From: a virus | Taxonomy: Duplodnaviria > Heunggongvirae > Uroviricota > Caudoviricetes | Length of the DNA: 39,497 nucleotides | Strand: one strand, 5' to 3' | Virus record (IMG/VR): IMGVR_UViG_2778261536_000006 | In this document: positions 5,217 to 9,950 of the stretch, in pieces | Layout of the letters: the number at the start of each line of letters is the position of its first letter | Numbering within the stretch: position 1 is the first letter of the stretch | Translations under genes and position numbers: made by a program | The notes under the pieces: model-generated | What the model was told of the DNA's origin: nothing | Database searches by the model: none | The model's input: the letters and a program-made list of their open reading frames with translations, nothing else

Positions 5217-5909
5217 TTAATTATGTCTCTTAAGGGTTTGCGACTGACTGATTAAGACCTTTCCAAAGACCATGAATCGGTGTTCGTTTTCGCTAGTAAT
5301 TCCCCATTCACGGTAAATCTGGTTATCAGAAATCACCAGCAGTTTGTCAGGAATCATTTGAAGTCTTTTAACGTATATTTTGTCATCAAAACCAAAGACA
5401 TATATACCATCACCATCAAACTGATTGATGCTGACATCAACGAAGATGAGATCTCCTGGCTCAATGGTTGGACACATACTGTCCCCACGAACGTTGATAA
5501 CTTTGATGTGATTGGCTGGTCGTCCGCCGAACATTGATACAGCATTATCAGTTCTGTATTCGATGGCATGAATCACATCAATGACATCACCGCCCTGGAT
5601 AAGGCCATTTCCCGCACTGGCACTGATATCCAACATTTCAATACGGAACACATCCTTCACCTGCGCAACATCCTCATCATTACTGTTTTTATATACAGTA
5701 TTACTTTTGAGGGCAGAGGTAAAGAGATCAGCAATATCAACACCTAAGCTCTTGGCAATATTACTCAGTGTTTGTTCGGTAAATTGTTTCTGCTTACCCG
5801 TTTCTAAGCGCGAGATGTTCGCCGCATCTACTCCTATTGCTTCAGCGAGATCGGCGATTTTCATGTTCTTCGCTTGGCGAAGTTGTCTGACTCGTTTTCC
5901 TATGTTCAT
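5217..5909 (-). CDS. CI-like phage repressor (HTH-XRE plus S24 LexA-like peptidase domain)
   Basis: 230 aa; N-terminal HTH and C-terminal S24 motifs (GDSM...KRL); divergent from the Cro-like gene. Confidence 0.85.
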   Translation of the reverse strand: MNIGKRVRQLRQAKNMKIADLAEAIGVDAANISRLETGKQKQFTEQTLSNIAKSLGVDIADLFTSALKSNTVYKNSNDEDVAQVKDVFRIEMLDISASAGNGLIQGGDVIDVIHAIEYRTDNAVSMFGGRPANHIKVINVRGDSMCPTIEPGDLIFVDVSINQFDGDGIYVFGFDDKIYVKRLQMIPDKLLVISDNQIYREWGITSENEHRFMVFGKVLISQSQTLKRHN

Positions 5910-5929
5910 GCGTTTATTACATTTCTTTA

Positions 5930-5992
5930 TTGCGTGATAAGCAAATCAACTTGCGCAAAATACTTGCGTGAAATAACATGCATAACGCGCAA
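5930..5992. promoter_or_regulatory. Operator/promoter region between cI-like and cro-like genes
   Basis: TTGCGTGATAAGCAA (5930-5944), perfect palindrome TTGCGCAA (5951-5958) and TTGCG...CGCAA (5964-5992) in the 97-bp divergent intergenic region. Confidence 0.5.
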
Positions 5993-6006
5993 TATTTGGA
6001 GGATAT

Positions 6007-6267
6007 ATGCAATCACCATTACGAAATGTGCGTAAGGCGCATGGTTTCACTTTGCAGCATGTTGCTGCGGGTGTTCAAGTCAATCCAGCGACGTTGAGTC
6101 GTATTGAGAGGCTGGAGCAGATTCCATCTATCGAGCTTGCAGAACGTTTAGCCAATTTTTTTAAGGGTGAAATCAGCGAAATGCAGATTCTTTATCCGGC
6201 ACGTTTTCAATCTAGCCAAAACCAGAATGGGTTTAAACCACAGGAACAGGAGGTGAACCGTGGGTAA
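6007..6267 (+). CDS. Cro-like HTH (XRE family) regulator
   Basis: 86 aa with N-terminal HTH; divergent from repressor; GGAGG 4 nt upstream. Confidence 0.7.
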   Translation: MQSPLRNVRKAHGFTLQHVAAGVQVNPATLSRIERLEQIPSIELAERLANFFKGEISEMQILYPARFQSSQNQNGFKPQEQEVNRG

Positions 6268-6811
6268 GCATCACTGGAAAATAGAAAAACAGCCTGAGTG
6301 GTACGTGAAAGCTGTCAGAAAAACTATCGCGGCGTTGCCGGGTGGTTACGCTGAAGCGGCTGATTGGCTCGATGTAACAGAAAACGCTTTATTCAACCGC
6401 CTTCGTGCAGATGGCGATCAGATTTTCCCGCTGGGATGGGCAATGGTTTTACAGCGTGCTGGTGGCACTCACTTCATTGCTGATGCTGTGGCGCAGTCTG
6501 CAAATGGCGTATTTGTGTCTCTTCCTGACATCGAGGATGTGGACAACGCCGATATCAACCAACGCCTGCTGGAGGTCATTGAACAGATCGGCAGTTATTC
6601 AAAACAGATTCGTTCAGCAATTGAAGACGGTGTAGTGGAACCGCATGAGAAGACAGCAATTAACGATGAGCTGTACCTCTCAATTTCGAAGCTGCAGGAG
6701 CATGCAGCACTGGTCTACAAAATCTTTTGCGTTTCAGAAAGTAGTGACGCCCGCGAGTGTGCAGCTCCGGGCGCCGTGGCGTGTCGTGACTGTGGAGAAA
6801 CTAACGCATGA
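6260..6811 (+). CDS. Putative lysogeny/early regulatory protein (CII-like position)
   Basis: 183 aa, GTG start with AGGAGG 6 nt upstream, immediately after cro; family assignment tentative. Confidence 0.4.
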
Positions 6812-7146
6812 ACAGTTTAACAACACACTACCGTCGCTCGCAACTGATTGCGCTTCCTGTACCGGGTGGAAAAGCGAAGGTGGAGTATTGCTATGCAGTA
6901 AATGTACCAGGTGACAGGGTAATTGTAACCCACAGCTTTGCAGAGTGGGCTGTGGGTGATTTCAACCGGCAAAAGGAGACAGTCCTTTGCGACAAGTTAA
7001 CCGCTGGTTCAAAGATCACTACGGAGTGCCCGTCAGAGTCATTCGTTGGGAGCCGGAAACACAACGGGTTATCTACCTCCGTGAAGGCTATGAGCATGAG
7101 TGCTTCAGCCCGCTCGAACAGTTTCGTCGTAAATTCAGGGAAATAG
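6808..7146 (+). CDS. Hypothetical ORF, uncertain (possible frameshifted gene)
   Basis: 112-aa track ORF with a Ser-rich, low-complexity C-terminal half; an alternative TTG-start ORF 6987-7166 in another frame looks more protein-like. Confidence 0.2.
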
Positions 7147-7155
7147 AGGTCGGTC

Positions 7156-8097
7156 ATGAGCACTAAATTAACCGGCTATGTATGGGATGGTTGCGCAGCG
7201 TCAGGCATGAAATTATCCAGCGTGGCAATTATGGCCCGCCTGGCTGATTTCAGTAATGACGAAGGTGTGTGCTGGCCATCAATTGAAACCATTGCCCGCC
7301 AGATTGGCGCGGGGATGAGTACCGTCAGAACGGCTATCGCACGGCTGGAAGCAGAAGGCTGGTTAACGCGTAAGGCGCGTCGCCAGGGTAACCGCAATGC
7401 GTCGAATGTTTATCAGCTTAACGTTGCGAAGCTTCAGGCAGCGGCATTTTCTCAACTGTCAGATTCTGACCCGTCAAAATCTGACGCATCAAAATCTGAC
7501 CCGTCAAAATTTGATGCGTCGAAATCTGGCAAAAAAGCGGGTTTTCACCCGTCAGAATCTGGCGGGGATCCGTCAGTAAAATCAAAACATGATCCGTCAG
7601 ATAAAAAACCTTCTCGTCCGGACGCTTCGCAACCGGACACGCAGACGGATGAACAGGATTTTTTAACTCGCCATCCTGATGCGGTTGTATTCAGCCCTAA
7701 AAAGCGCCAGTGGGGAACGCAGGATGATTTGACCTGCGCACAGTGGCTCTGGAAAAAAATCATCGCCCTGTACGAGCAGGCTGCCGAATGTGACGGCGAG
7801 GTGGTTCGTCCCAAAGAACCGAACTGGACAGCCTGGGCAAACGAAATTCGCCTGATGTGTGTGCAGGATGGTCGTACTCACAAACAAATCTGCGAGATGT
7901 ACAGCCGCGTCAGCCGCGATCCGTTCTGGTGCCGTAACGTGCTCAGCCCGTCGAAGTTGCGGGAAAAATGGGATGAGCTTTCCCTGCGCTTATCACCGTC
8001 CGTCAGCACGTACACCGAAAAACGCGAAGACCCGTACTTCAAATCCAGTTACGACAACGTGGACTACAGCCAGATCCCGGCAGGATTCAGGGGGTGA
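7156..8097 (+). CDS. Replication initiator (O-like, winged-HTH N-terminus) containing origin iterons
   Basis: 313 aa; HTH-like N-terminal domain; repeat-rich linker encoded by tandem DNA repeats; position after cro/cII as in lambdoid replication modules. Confidence 0.6.
   Translation: MSTKLTGYVWDGCAASGMKLSSVAIMARLADFSNDEGVCWPSIETIARQIGAGMSTVRTAIARLEAEGWLTRKARRQGNRNASNVYQLNVAKLQAAAFSQLSDSDPSKSDASKSDPSKFDASKSGKKAGFHPSESGGDPSVKSKHDPSDKKPSRPDASQPDTQTDEQDFLTRHPDAVVFSPKKRQWGTQDDLTCAQWLWKKIIALYEQAAECDGEVVRPKEPNWTAWANEIRLMCVQDGRTHKQICEMYSRVSRDPFWCRNVLSPSKLREKWDELSLRLSPSVSTYTEKREDPYFKSSYDNVDYSQIPAGFRG
7465..7606 (+). repeat. Iteron array (putative ori) inside the replication initiator gene
   Basis: Four tandem 15-bp units TCTGAC(C/G)C(G/A)TCAAAA at 7465-7524, then a degenerate unit and three spaced CCGTCAG copies to about 7606. 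Confidence 0.55.
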
Positions 8098-8099
8098 TC

Positions 8100-8588
8100 A
8101 TGAGTCTTTTGAATGAAGTTCAGAAATTCATTGAAGCCCATCCGGGGTGTACTTCCGGAGACATTGCGGATGCTTTTGCAGGTTACTCACGGCAGCGCGT
8201 TCTGCAGTCAGCAAGCAAGTTACGTCAGAGTGGGCGTGTGGCTCACCGTTGTGAAGGAGATACACGCAGACATTTCTCGCGCCTGACTGAGAGAGCGCAG
8301 GAGCCGGAACCACAACCAGTTCGTGAAACCAGACCTGTGCGCAATTTCTATGTTGGCACTAACGACCCGCAGGTGATTTTGTGCCTGACTCGCCAGGCGG
8401 AAGAACTGGAGTCCAGGGGCTTATACCGTCGAGCTGCAACGGTGTGGATGGAGGCATTCCGTGAAAGCCACTCCCAGCCAGAACGAAACAATTTTCTGGC
8501 GCATCGTGAGCGGTGCTTACGGAAAAGCAGCAAGCGCGCTGCATCGGGTGAAGAGTGGTATCTGTCAGGGAATTACGTGGGGGCTTAA
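8100..8588 (+). CDS. PerC-family transcriptional regulator-like protein
   Basis: C-terminal AEELESRGLYRRAATVWMEAF resembles the PerC motif; ATG at 8100 with GGGGG 5 nt upstream (track starts at GTG 8094). Confidence 0.45.
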   Translation: MSLLNEVQKFIEAHPGCTSGDIADAFAGYSRQRVLQSASKLRQSGRVAHRCEGDTRRHFSRLTERAQEPEPQPVRETRPVRNFYVGTNDPQVILCLTRQAEELESRGLYRRAATVWMEAFRESHSQPERNNFLAHRERCLRKSSKRAASGEEWYLSGNYVGA

Positions 8589-9241
8589 TGAGTAATAAAT
8601 ATTGCCAGGCGCTGGTGGAACTGCGGAACAAACCAGCCCATGAACTGAAGGAAGTGGGCGATCAGTGGCGCACGCCGGACAACATTTTCTGGGGAATTAA
8701 CACCCTGTTTGGCCCGTTTGTTCTGGATCTGTTCACCGACGGTGATAACGCCAAATGTGCCGCGTATTACACGGCGGAAGACAACGCGCTGGCGCATGAC
8801 TGGTCAGAACGTCTTGCGGAGCTTAAAGGTGCTGCCTTTGGTAATCCCCCATACAGCCGCGCCAGTAAGCATGAGGGGCAATACATCACCGGCATGCGTT
8901 ACATCATGAAACATGCCAGTGCCATGCGTGATAAGGGCGGGCGCTATGTTTTCCTGATCAAAGCTGCCACCAGCGAAGTGTGGTGGCCGGAAGATGCAGA
9001 CCATATTGCTTTTATTCGCGGGCGTATTGGTTTTGAACTGCCTGCCTGGTTTATCCCGAAAGACGAGAAGCAGGTGCCGACAGGCGCTTTCTTCGCTGGT
9101 GCTATTGCTGTTTTCGATAAGACCTGGAAGGGACCGGCAATCAGCTACATCGGGCGCGATGAACTTGAGGCATGTGGTGAGGCGTTTCTGGCGCAGGTTC
9201 GCCAGCAGGCGGAAAAACTGGTCAGGGAGATGGCGGCATGA
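8588..9241 (+). CDS. Phage Dam-like N6-adenine DNA methyltransferase
   Basis: NPPY catalytic motif (FGNPPYS); start taken at ATG 8588, which overlaps the upstream stop. Confidence 0.75.
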   Translation: MSNKYCQALVELRNKPAHELKEVGDQWRTPDNIFWGINTLFGPFVLDLFTDGDNAKCAAYYTAEDNALAHDWSERLAELKGAAFGNPPYSRASKHEGQYITGMRYIMKHASAMRDKGGRYVFLIKAATSEVWWPEDADHIAFIRGRIGFELPAWFIPKDEKQVPTGAFFAGAIAVFDKTWKGPAISYIGRDELEACGEAFLAQVRQQAEKLVREMAA

Positions 9242-9564
9242 CGACGTTAACTCAATGCCAGCAGCAGGTGCTGGATATGCTGATTTCTTATCAGAAAGAA
9301 CGTGGCTTCCCGCCAACCAATCAGGAGGTGGCAACCATGCTGGGATACCGTTCAGTGAATGCAGCGGTGGAGCATCTTCGCGCACTGGAGAAAAAAGGCG
9401 TCATCACGATAAAGCGTGGCGTGGCCCGGGGCATCACGCTTCATACCGCGGTGAAGGACGACGACAGCGAGGCGGTCGGGATTATCCGCGCACTGCTTGC
9501 CGGTGAGGCAAACGCCAGGCTGCGTGCAGCCCACTGGTTACATGAGAGGGGCCTGAAAGTATGA
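9238..9564 (+). CDS. LexA DNA-binding-domain-like protein (no peptidase domain)
   Basis: 108 aa; LTQCQQQVLDML...GFPPTNQEVA...RSVNAAVEHLRALEKKGVI parallels the LexA N-terminal winged helix; ORF ends before any S24 domain. Confidence 0.55.
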   Translation: MTTLTQCQQQVLDMLISYQKERGFPPTNQEVATMLGYRSVNAAVEHLRALEKKGVITIKRGVARGITLHTAVKDDDSEAVGIIRALLAGEANARLRAAHWLHERGLKV

Positions 9565-9950
9565 AGCTAATACTGCCTTTTCCGCCCAGCGTGAACACGT
9601 ACTGGCGACACCCCAACAAAGGGGCGCTTGCAGGTAAGAGCCTGATAAGCGCGGCGGGGCGAAAATTCCAGAGCGCAGCGTGTGCAGCCATCATTGAGCA
9701 GTTACGTCGTCTGCCGAAACCAACGTCGGCACCAGCTTCAGTGGAGATCGTGTTGTTTCCTCCGGATAACCGGCTTCGCGATCTGGACAACTATAACAAG
9801 GCGCTGTTTGACGCCCTGACCCACGCGGGTGTGTGGGTGGACGACAGCCAGGTGAAAAGAATGCTGGTGGAGTGGGGGCCGGTTATCCCGGAAGGGAAGG
9901 TCGAAATCACTATCAGTAAGTACGAGAAAACGGCGGGTGCAGCCGCCTGA
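9561..9950 (+). CDS. rusA: RusA-family Holliday junction resolvase
   Basis: 129 aa with LPFPPSVNTYWRH and DLDNYNKALFDALT motifs characteristic of RusA. Confidence 0.8.
   Translation: MKLILPFPPSVNTYWRHPNKGALAGKSLISAAGRKFQSAACAAIIEQLRRLPKPTSAPASVEIVLFPPDNRLRDLDNYNKALFDALTHAGVWVDDSQVKRMLVEWGPVIPEGKVEITISKYEKTAGAAA

Follow-up and report, generated by a model that had tools for sequence, protein, structure and literature searches.

A putative lambda-style replication origin within the initiator gene of an SfII-type lambdoid prophage

The window analysed here, a stretch of 39,497 nucleotides, carries an SfII-type lambdoid Shigella/E. coli prophage whose early rightward operon runs in the order cro, a cII-like gene, a DUF4222 gene and a 313-residue initiator in the lambdoid O position, followed by PerC-like, Dam, LexA-DBD and RusA genes. 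The assignment of this gene as a replication initiator, originally made from the DNA letters and open reading frames, agrees with a Pfam HTH_36 winged-helix match at residues 23-70 (E 4e-11) and with full-length identity of 98-99% to genes annotated as 'replication protein O / primosomal protein' in SfII, SfIV, vB_EcoM-689R6, Kati and PhiR29_1, among them isolated phages such as SfII and SfIV. The protein comprises a winged-helix N-domain (residues 1-98), a disordered linker (99-163), a helical C-domain (164-278) and a disordered tail (279-313); in the AlphaFold model residues 102-163 are disordered with folded domains on either side, and the C-domain is helical except for one short beta-hairpin, with no second winged helix. 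A Pfam search of residues 151-313 returned no match even at E 10, and Phg_2220_C was not found. Consistent with the original prediction that no DnaC/DnaB-like or P-like gene follows, helicase, loader and primase domains were absent from all early-region open reading frames, and the window holds no loader or helicase gene.

The tandem 15-bp repeats predicted within the initiator gene were recovered by Tandem Repeats Finder at 7465-7528 (period 15, 4.3 copies, 81% matches, score 86; the period-30 reading of the same array gives 88% matches and score 100). Aligned by its dyad symmetry, each repeat consists of a 13-bp palindrome, GTCA(A/G)AATCTGAC, and a 2-bp spacer, and the 106 bp from 7458 to 7563 hold six copies, five in tandem at a 15-bp period and a sixth 33 bp further on; because this sixth copy stands alone, the 13-mer is taken as the repeat unit. 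Sites with two or fewer mismatches from GTCARAATCTGRC number six within these 106 bp, compared with one (at 35028) in the remaining 39.4 kb on both strands. The extent first proposed, 7465-7606, does contain repeats, but the array starts 7 nt earlier, at 7458. Likewise, the initial description of four tandem repeats, a degenerate fifth and three CCGTCAG copies had located the latter correctly (7549, 7570 and 7594) and is recast here as five tandem palindromes and a complete sixth that includes the 7549 copy, while the other two copies lie in a separate conserved block, GATCCGTCAG(T/A)TAAA, repeated 24 bp apart. The repeats are in frame with the initiator gene and encode the peptide SDSDPSKSDASKSDPSKFDASKSG; the six palindromes correspond to residues 102-136, inside the modelled disordered linker, as had been predicted. 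In nearly all type-A relatives the sixth iteron is kept as CCG TCA GAA TCT GG (GAA 100%, TCT 98%), and the pattern AAAAA...GTTTT(C/G)AC of the spacer preceding it recurs in relatives with TTT 100% fixed. A search of the window gave no further repeat array or candidate initiator, no DnaA box (TTWTNCACA) and no known RNA family; a terminator-like hairpin on the minus strand (7551-7538) lacked conservation in relatives and was treated as chance. The coordinates of all features are collected in Table 1.

Table 1. Features of the initiator gene and its internal repeat array (window coordinates)
Feature	Position	Strand	Sequence	Basis or proposed role
Replication initiator gene, 313 aa	7156-8097	+		ORF; Pfam HTH_36; AlphaFold layout; phage homologues
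Exchangeable 'specificity module' (N-domain coding region and putative origin)	7156-7635	+		Mosaic joint near gene nt 480
Tandem iterons IT1-IT5	7458-7530	.		Same motif, place and period in 66 loci, ~30 genera; fixed codons
IT1	7458-7470		GTCAGATTCTGAC	Perfect 6+1+6 palindrome
IT2	7473-7485		GTCAAAATCTGAC	
IT3	7488-7500		ATCAAAATCTGAC	
IT4	7503-7515		GTCAAAATTTGAT	
IT5	7518-7530		GTCGAAATCTGGC	
Spacer IT5-IT6, 20 bp	7531-7550	.	AAAAAAGCGGGTTTTCACCC	A-tract then T-tract
IT6, stand-alone iteron	7551-7563	.	GTCAGAATCTGGC	0 mismatches to consensus
Conserved A-rich block	7564-7610	.	GGGGATCCGTCAGTAAAATCAAAACATGATCCGTCAGATAAAAAACC	Candidate unwinding or helicase-entry region
DnaT-like C-terminal tail	7990-8094	+	...NVDYSQIPAGFRG	Proposed docking peptide for a DnaC-type loader, here the host's

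An adjacent AT-rich element was sought. Over 30-40 bp, duplex stability along the gene is lowest at 7575-7615, directly to the right of IT6; the effect is modest (z ~2.1, 97.5-98th percentile of the window), and the A-rich block, at ~65% A+T, is far from lambda's AT-rich tract. This block carries two GATC sites (7567 and 7591) together with two half-site-like CCGTCAG copies, and its synonymous sites GAT, CCG, GTA, TCA and GAT show 98-100% conservation across iteron classes A, B and C; the major-codon fraction is 0.92 in the block compared with 0.56 in the N-domain. GATC enrichment across the whole window was considered and rejected (155 observed versus 153 expected), and the two sites in the putative origin are of note because they are conserved.

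To separate constraint on the DNA from constraint on the peptide, codons for S[KE]SD in 66 distinct relatives from ~30 enterobacterial genera were compared with positions outside the linker. The first serine is encoded by TCA at 124 of 127 repeat positions versus 207 of 1256 (16%) outside the linker, and the second by TCT at 111 of 127 versus 116 of 1256; the lysine or glutamate codon ends in A in all 127 repeats versus 1003 of 1687, and aspartate is GAC at 101 of 127 versus 343 of 723. The Fisher P values for this bias range from 1e-11 to 1e-81, for loci that are linked by descent and horizontal transfer, so that these counts, like those of the helix and tail associations below, are not independent events. 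The spacer codon of the repeat, in turn, is free to vary (P/A/T/G/R/E). Codon choice for serine, lysine/glutamate and aspartate within the repeat is thus fixed, which shows that selection acts on the DNA; the SKSD peptide follows from the repeat in the DNA and is no feature in itself. Iteron copy number ranges from ~3 to 11 among close relatives with the gene intact, and the prediction that the repeats should be retained in functional homologous phages held: the whole array is kept in SfII, SfIV, Kati and PhiR29_1.

Repeat sequence covaries with two elements of the N-domain, the recognition helix and the wing. Among 178 distinct open reading frames, four classes were distinguished: helix STVRTAI with wing RRxGNRNASNVY and repeat [G/A]TCA[A/G]AATCTGAC (~60 ORFs); helix STVKSAI/TTVSAAI with wing RKxGGRNxSNIY and repeat GTCAAATATTGAC (~30 ORFs); helix STVITAI with wing RRxGQRSxTNLY and repeat TTCAGATTCTGAA (~19 ORFs); and helix NTVRSAL with wing RKxKGRNTS and repeat TTCAAATTTTGA(A/G) (5 ORFs). 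Half-sites 7-8 bp apart at a 15-bp period are an unusual arrangement for a winged-helix dimer. Relatives of the initiator amount to 2377 protein clusters at E<=1e-3. The N-domain and the repeats travel together as a module: phages phiNP, LLS, Eeyore and YeP2/3 have only nt 1-480 of the gene in common with it, and in 52 of 66 genome loci only residues 1 to ~161-180 are shared, the C-domain being Phg_2220_C (PF09524, lambda O type), as it also is in phiNP, LLS and YeP2. The C-domain of the present initiator, for its part, occurs with unrelated N-domains, whose own unrelated repeats occupy the same place at 21-24-bp periods that ignore the reading frame.

These observations bear on two explanations in which the array is no origin. 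The repeats might be a flexible, low-complexity linker generated by slippage and devoid of a role as DNA, which would fit a period that is a multiple of three, the predicted disorder of the region and the wide range of copy number in close relatives with no damage to the gene. We give this almost no credence: slippage leaves unexplained why synonymous positions are fixed while the spacer residue drifts, every unit is a palindrome, which is meaningless for a peptide, the repeats of sister lineages change frame, and the repeat sequence follows the recognition helix. The palindromes could instead be operators through which the protein, in the manner of MarR or GntR, regulates its own gene or blocks transcription, with the origin elsewhere or replication started in another way. 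This we regard as improbable, if less so than slippage. The sites are in mid-gene, within coding sequence, and not at a promoter (a search of 5800-8700 gave no promoter-like site), the gene stands where O does in lambdoid early operons, the same N-domain and repeats are fused to replication functions (PF09524, and tails whose partners are lambda P or DnaC loaders), and the window offers no other array or initiator candidate; autoregulation and origin function are in any case compatible, and neither excludes the other.

The repeats are therefore almost certainly iterons, that is, binding sites of the prophage's own initiator, in a lambda-style origin placed inside the initiator gene, as judged from comparative sequence analysis. 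The likeness to ori-lambda in gene O that had been proposed at the outset gains from the sites tracking the N-domain, their movement with it as a module and the constraint at the DNA level. In lambda, gene O carries inverted-repeat iterons and an AT-rich tract at its middle, and the count of iterons differs between phages, with six in the Stx phages 933W and P27 (PMC7466680). The present locus likewise has a mid-gene array of several imperfect inverted-repeat iterons, flanked by a candidate melting region of modest instability, in an initiator gene that follows cII in the rightward early operon; as in lambda O, the N-terminal winged helix would provide specificity and the C-terminal part would serve the helicase (PMC5509034), and as in lambda O and the Stx phages a changing number of iterons lengthens the linker peptide (PMC7466680). 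In contrast, the iterons here are 13 bp long and directly abutting at a 15-bp period, compared with 19 bp at ~20-24 bp in lambda, and they have no sequence relationship to lambda's. The A-rich tract is weak, a C-domain other than Phg_2220_C is present, no P gene is adjacent and the tail is DnaT-like. Relatives of the SfII-type initiator with PF09524 or with lambda P do exist.

The last point bears on how the helicase would be recruited. The initiator ends in SQIPAGFRG, identical at eight of nine residues to the SQIPPGFRG end of E. coli DnaT; the extreme C-terminal motif (S/D)xIPxGFRG, present in the initiator, is invariant in 18 DnaT orthologues, and the two proteins align over the tail only (hhalign; BLASTP). 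The last 76 nt of the gene (nt 867-942) form a separate mosaic unit common to mEp460 and Stx2 phages. Among 116 distinct relatives with a GFRG tail, a DnaC homologue is next in 30, with its start between -3 and +12 nt relative to the stop, no loader is next in 86, and lambda P in none; relatives with W[EG]xT[LI] or DWIYG tails have lambda P next in 40 of 40. Relatives of the type labelled L170 end in VNHISEPDTEIPPGFRG, compared with VNTVSEPDSQIPPGFRG in DnaT, with a DnaC homologue 4 nt past their stop; in L170 itself the downstream product matches E. coli DnaC at E 4.5e-74. It is the type of tail, not that of the C-domain, that predicts the loader gene, and this holds across both C-domain types. 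The early suggestion of a different route to the helicase has thereby gained a concrete candidate, a DnaT-like tail of the kind that pairs with DnaC-type loaders, although contact with DnaC would itself be an inference; the phage probably uses the host DnaC-DnaB, to judge from this association.

[quoted passage not shown] We consider this doubtful, though far from negligible: the tail-loader association speaks against it, the PerC-like gene is missing in many relatives (methylase, ParB-HTH or DUF977 genes stand there instead), and the matches at fold level are weak. Delivery through the tail, the reading we prefer, admits a broader and more tentative extension. The last 10-20 residues may be a swappable address label for the loader, with W-x-x-(L/I) or DWIYG directing to lambda P and IPxGFRG to DnaC; since DnaT shares the tail and its gene lies directly upstream of dnaC (the E. 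coli order being dnaT-dnaC), the GFRG tail could be the contact that lets DnaT pass DnaB-DnaC on to the restart primosome. The dnaT-dnaC pair could then have arisen by domestication of an 'initiator-tail plus loader' cassette, and phages like those of the SfII type would copy the label, use host DnaC and need no loader gene of their own. The two genes lie in one operon, and recruitment of DnaB-DnaC by DnaT is an acknowledged open question (PMC13377028). Two points count against a tail-DnaC route: the DnaT tail takes part in cooperative ssDNA binding (PMC4132743), and DopC, a bearer of the DnaT_C motif, has a lambda-P-like partner (PMC5509034). We hold this extension somewhat less likely than its negation.

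Comparison with other systems delimits the proposal further. The initiator resembles E. coli DnaT in its extreme C-terminus and, in L170-type relatives, in the dnaT-dnaC gene order, and the database label 'primosomal protein I' stems from these likenesses. Unlike DnaT, it shows no similarity to the N-terminal oligomerisation domain or the acidic PriB-binding linker (BLASTP, hhalign) and no detectable similarity to the three-helix ssDNA-binding domain (DnaT residues 84-153; PF17948 not matched); it is predicted to be targeted by sequence-specific DNA binding rather than by PriA-PriB, and its window lacks a dnaC-like gene. Winged-helix Rep proteins of plasmids (pSC101 RepA, F RepE, R6K pi and RK2 TrfA) use directly repeated sites by an unwinding element and recruit host DnaB-DnaC; they have two winged helices (WH1-WH2), 17-22-bp iterons at about two helical turns, an origin outside rep and usually DnaA boxes. 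A winged helix binding a direct-repeat array beside an unwinding element, with host DnaB-DnaC, is likewise proposed here, but with one winged helix and a helical C-domain, an intragenic array and no DnaA box. DopC/DopE of Cellvibrionales, a domesticated lambda O/P pair, similarly combines an HTH_36 N-domain with a DnaT C-terminal motif that replaces the lambda-O C-domain (Brezellec et al. 2017, PMC5509034); DopC has lost the iterons, does not act as an origin and works with a lambda-P-like partner (PMC5509034), whereas the present gene keeps its iterons intact and has no partner gene. Among Stx phages, the Eru types are lambdoid phages in which other replication genes stand in place of O/P; HTH_36 proteins occur in Eru5, 6, 8, 11 and 13, and neither paper describes an origin (Llarena 2021, Fagerlund 2022; PMC8044961, PMC8951638). 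The module was considered as the published Eru6 type and this was rejected: the Eru6 reference Stx2a_WGPS2 has the same PerC-like, Dam, LexA-DBD and RusA genes after its initiator, but the initiators of Stx2a_WGPS2, mEp460 and Stx2c phages match only nt 867-942, the tail.

Taken together, we place a probability of about 0.8 on the reading that an SfII-type lambdoid prophage has its replication origin at 7458-7610, inside the gene of its own initiator, and that this origin is served by host DnaB-DnaC through the DnaT-like tail. Transcription of the rightward early genes (cro, cII-like, DUF4222, initiator) would yield the initiator, whose N-terminal winged-helix domain, probably as dimers, would bind the six palindromes to form an O-some-like complex. 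The duplex would then open at the A-rich block with its two GATC sites, and the helical C-domain and the tail (...SQIPAGFRG) would bring in host DnaB-DnaC directly, so that the origin could fire with no P-like, DnaC-like or DnaB-like gene being encoded.

An intragenic origin in the style of lambda is an ordinary kind of element; the SfII-type family itself has not been described before. Our literature search found no report of binding or origin activity for this initiator family, a search with the iteron sequence returned unrelated primer sequences only, and the publication of the SfIV genome names the replication module and no origin. The locus provides a defined candidate origin for the serotype-converting Shigella phages SfII, SfIV and SfV and for a very large set of enterobacterial prophages. 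Four helix classes matched with four half-site classes amount to a readable specificity code, of use in annotating prophages, in predicting replication incompatibility or cross-activation among co-resident prophages, and for phage-derived replicons. The side result on tails and loaders may matter more, as it would turn the matter of how DnaT recruits DnaB-DnaC into a simple question of peptide binding.

The repeats in the linker-coding part of the initiator gene form a real, non-chance array, which we consider probable (about 0.8, judged from sequence comparison) to be a lambda-type intragenic iteron origin belonging to a previously uncharacterised initiator family. Tandem Repeats Finder reported 4.3 copies with a period of 15 at 7465-7528, and sequence reading together with inverted-repeat output resolved the unit into a 13-bp palindrome plus a 2-bp spacer; the array of the original prediction was thus confirmed, with its unit and left end now better defined. 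Sites with two or fewer mismatches from GTCARAATCTGRC numbered six in the array (IT1-IT6) and one in the remainder of the 39.5-kb window. The three CCGTCAG copies noted earlier in the gene were also recovered, the first within IT6 and the second and third as parts of a duplicated element, GATCCGTCAG(T/A)TAAA. The encoded peptide, SDSDPSKSDASKSDPSKFDASKSG, sits in residues 102-163, disordered in the AlphaFold model; a winged-helix N-domain (1-98) precedes this segment and a helical C-domain (164-278) follows it.

Positions of the iterons and of the surrounding early genes in the window
Feature	Position	Remark
cI-like repressor	5217-5909	minus strand
cro-like	6007-6267	
cII/CP76-like	6260-6811	
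DUF4222	6987-7166	
Initiator	7156-8097	
IT1 GTCAGATTCTGAC	7458-7470	perfect 6+1+6 palindrome
IT2-IT5		15-bp steps after IT1
IT6 GTCAGAATCTGGC	7551-7563	stand-alone
PerC-like (YfdN)	8094-8588	
Dam methylase	8555-9241	
LexA DNA-binding-domain protein	9238-9564	
RusA	9561-9950	

For the whole window, shuffled sequences predict 4.4 copies of the CCGTCAG heptamer, where 20 are present; of those outside the initiator gene, most belong to the minus strand of the late and structural region. A 22-nt stretch in the N-domain coding region (7295-7316) has 77% identity to IT6 plus GGGGAT (7548-7569) and contains a perfect 11-nt inverted match to 7556-7566; this may be fortuitous or may mark a distal site for the initiator. 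Between IT5 and IT6, the minus strand has a hairpin resembling a terminator, CGGGTGAAAACCCG with a T-run after it (7538-7551); the stem is not conserved among relatives.

Repeats that encode a disordered segment might serve purely as a peptide linker, and this explanation was weighed against comparison loci from one-genome-per-species bacterial contigs (80) and viral contigs (160). The 13-mer was found in all 66 loci with the window-type N-domain (type A), in 3-11 copies with identical ORF position and 15-bp period; their source genera include Escherichia, Citrobacter, Kluyvera, Pantoea, Yersinia, Rahnella, Providencia and Tatumella. Units were picked by the peptide S[KE]SD, avoiding ascertainment by DNA similarity, and their codons compared with the gene outside the linker: the first Ser was TCA in 124/127 units (16% outside; Fisher P=1.6e-81), the second Ser TCT in 111/127 (9%; P=7e-81), Lys/Glu A-ending in 127/127 (59%; P=1e-27) and Asp GAC in 101/127 (47%; P=1e-11), P values that are overstated because the loci are phylogenetically non-independent, although the effect itself is nearly absolute. 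By contrast, the spacer codon specifies different residues in different units (P, A, T, G, R or E). Relatives combining unrelated N-domains with the window-type C-domain carry their own repeats at the equivalent position, with periods indifferent to the reading frame (23 bp at loci L016, L067, L076, L079 and L159, 21-24 bp in the L068 group and 22 bp at L075). Because codons are fixed while the spacer residue varies, and because these periods ignore the frame, a pure peptide-linker explanation is excluded. Some chromosomal copies in three protein clusters of relatives have deletions of most or all tandem iterons (P0016; P0020, where aa 83-125 and with them part of the wing are gone; and P0034, which is on 128 Salmonella contigs and retains roughly two units). 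Such copies may represent minimal origins or prophages that are defective.

Across 178 distinct ORFs, the type of consensus unit goes together with the type of predicted recognition helix and wing.

Repeat units associated with each predicted recognition helix and wing
Helix	Wing	Unit	ORFs
STVRTAI	RRxGNRNASNVY	[G/A]TCA[A/G]AATCTGAC	~60, window included
STVKSAI / TTVSAAI	RKxGGRNxSNIY	GTCAAATATTGAC	~30
STVITAI	RRxGQRSxTNLY	TTCAGATTCTGAA	~19
NTVRSAL	RKxKGRNTS	TTCAAATTTTGA(A/G)	5

Helix/repeat covariation is the classical signature by which lambdoid O/ori specificities are recognised, and is the strongest evidence below a binding experiment that the N-domain would read the repeat sites. In 52 of the 66 type-A loci, similarity to the window's initiator is confined to residues 1 to ~161-180, after which comes another C-domain, Pfam Phg_2220_C (PF09524), which is the lambda O C-domain by HHpred (PMC5509034); likewise, phages phiNP, LLS, Eeyore and YeP2/3 share just nt 1-480 of the initiator gene. 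These partial matches indicate that N-domain, repeats and adjoining block are a single exchangeable unit, as in lambda, with a joint near 7635. The repeats are not missing from functional relatives, an absence that the original prediction had said would count against it, because the complete gene is present, gapless and 98-99% identical, in the isolated phages SfII, SfIV, vB_EcoM-689R6, Kati, PhiR29_1, PhiR49_1 and SKA5.

To the right of IT5 the order is AAAAAAGCGGGTTTTCACCC, IT6, GGGGATCCGTCAGTAAAATCAAAACATGATCCGTCAGATAAAAAACC. Third codon positions of GAA TCT GGn GGG GAT CCG TCA GTA ... GAT CCA TCA are conserved among 65 distinct sequences, in iteron specificity classes A, B and C alike; the mean major-codon fraction of this block was 0.92, versus 0.56 at 55 equally conserved N-domain amino-acid positions, none of which reached 0.9. 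Positions 7575-7615 are the least stable 30-40-bp duplex within the gene (z ~2.1), and the block is much poorer in A+T than lambda's tract. It is a candidate for an unwinding or loading element shared by every specificity class. Two GATC sites (7567 and 7591) lie inside the synonymously fixed block, where at each of them all relatives (100%) encode Asp as GAT, and three directly follow the iterons of L075; adenine methyltransferase genes of three families (Dam PF05869, MT-A70 and D12) stand just 3' of the initiator in many relatives. The loci concerned are L022, L036, L063 and L075, with 7564-7600 (GATC sites) and 8555-9241 (Dam gene) in the window. The origin may be under methylation or SeqA control.

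The lambda parallel drawn in the original prediction holds for architecture: ori-lambda lies midway along gene O and has inverted-repeat iterons and an AT-rich tract, and iteron number differs among phages, lengthening the O protein (PMC7466680). The window shares the mid-gene inverted-repeat iterons but differs in their sequence, length and spacing (13 bp, abutting at 15 bp), in its weak AT tract, in its C-domain and in the absence of P. Papers on the non-lambdoid 'Eru' replication regions of Stx phages mention HTH_36 proteins and describe no origin (PMC8044961, PMC8951638), and a literature search, with most subscription journals outside its reach, found no paper on this iteron or origin.

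Shigella phage SfII is 97.7% identical to window 6000-9600 and several E. coli phages 97%, while a Shigella flexneri chromosome (L002) carries a 100% identical initiator gene. The local gene order is lambdoid, continuing beyond RusA with KilA-N, DUF968/HNH and Q, and leftward with an exonuclease and small ORFs. The early regions of the window yielded no domain of a helicase, primase or loader anywhere, bearing out the earlier remark that no DnaC/DnaB-like or P-like gene follows the initiator. The DnaA-box consensus TTWTNCACA is absent from the whole 39.5 kb (3.6 expected), and no Rfam family reached gathering score anywhere in the window. The PerC-like gene and the stop codon of the initiator overlap, and in 22 distinct relatives this gene comes directly after the initiator. 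The 108-aa LexA-type protein, conserved in SfII and related phages, has no S24 protease domain and could be a non-cleavable occupant of SOS boxes; the ORF at the left edge (1-573) encodes a SocA/Panacea antitoxin domain.

The initiator ends in SQIPAGFRG and E. coli DnaT (sequence checked against PDB entry 9zbt) in SQIPPGFRG. Only the last 33 columns align in profile comparisons, and the database label 'primosomal protein I' is, on this evidence, accounted for by the tail alone. Among distinct relatives the tail (window 7990-8094) predicts the next gene: lambda P (PF06992) comes next in 40/40 cases with a W[EG]xT[LI] or DWIYG tail, whereas among 116 cases with a GFRG tail (...IPxGFRG, as at the E. 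coli DnaT C-terminus) a DnaC homologue comes next in 30, no loader in 86 and lambda P in none. Where present, the DnaC homologue begins -3 to +12 nt after the stop codon of the initiator (at L170 its product has E 4.5e-74 against E. coli DnaC), and the association tracks the tail, not the C-domain type. At one locus, L071, an SSB-like DDDFI tail precedes a DnaC-like gene. The last 76 nt of the gene (8022-8097, nt 867-942) are a separate mosaic unit with a sharp joint just before the tail: mEp460, cdtI, Ayreon and Stx2a/Stx2c phages ('Eru6' type) match the initiator gene only there (96-97%) and then in the downstream genes, the mEp460, Stx2 and Eru6 initiators being otherwise different from the window's. 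In E. coli, dnaT-dnaC has the same gene order as a GFRG-tail initiator with its DnaC homologue. From the loader association, the mosaic tail and this gene order, we tentatively infer that the GFRG tail might address a DnaC-type loader and that the loaderless window phage might use host DnaC-DnaB, with the caveat that DopC has a DnaT_C motif yet is paired with a P-like protein (PMC5509034). An origin as such would be unsurprising to a specialist; what deserves attention is the code that connects tail with loader, together with its tie to DnaT.
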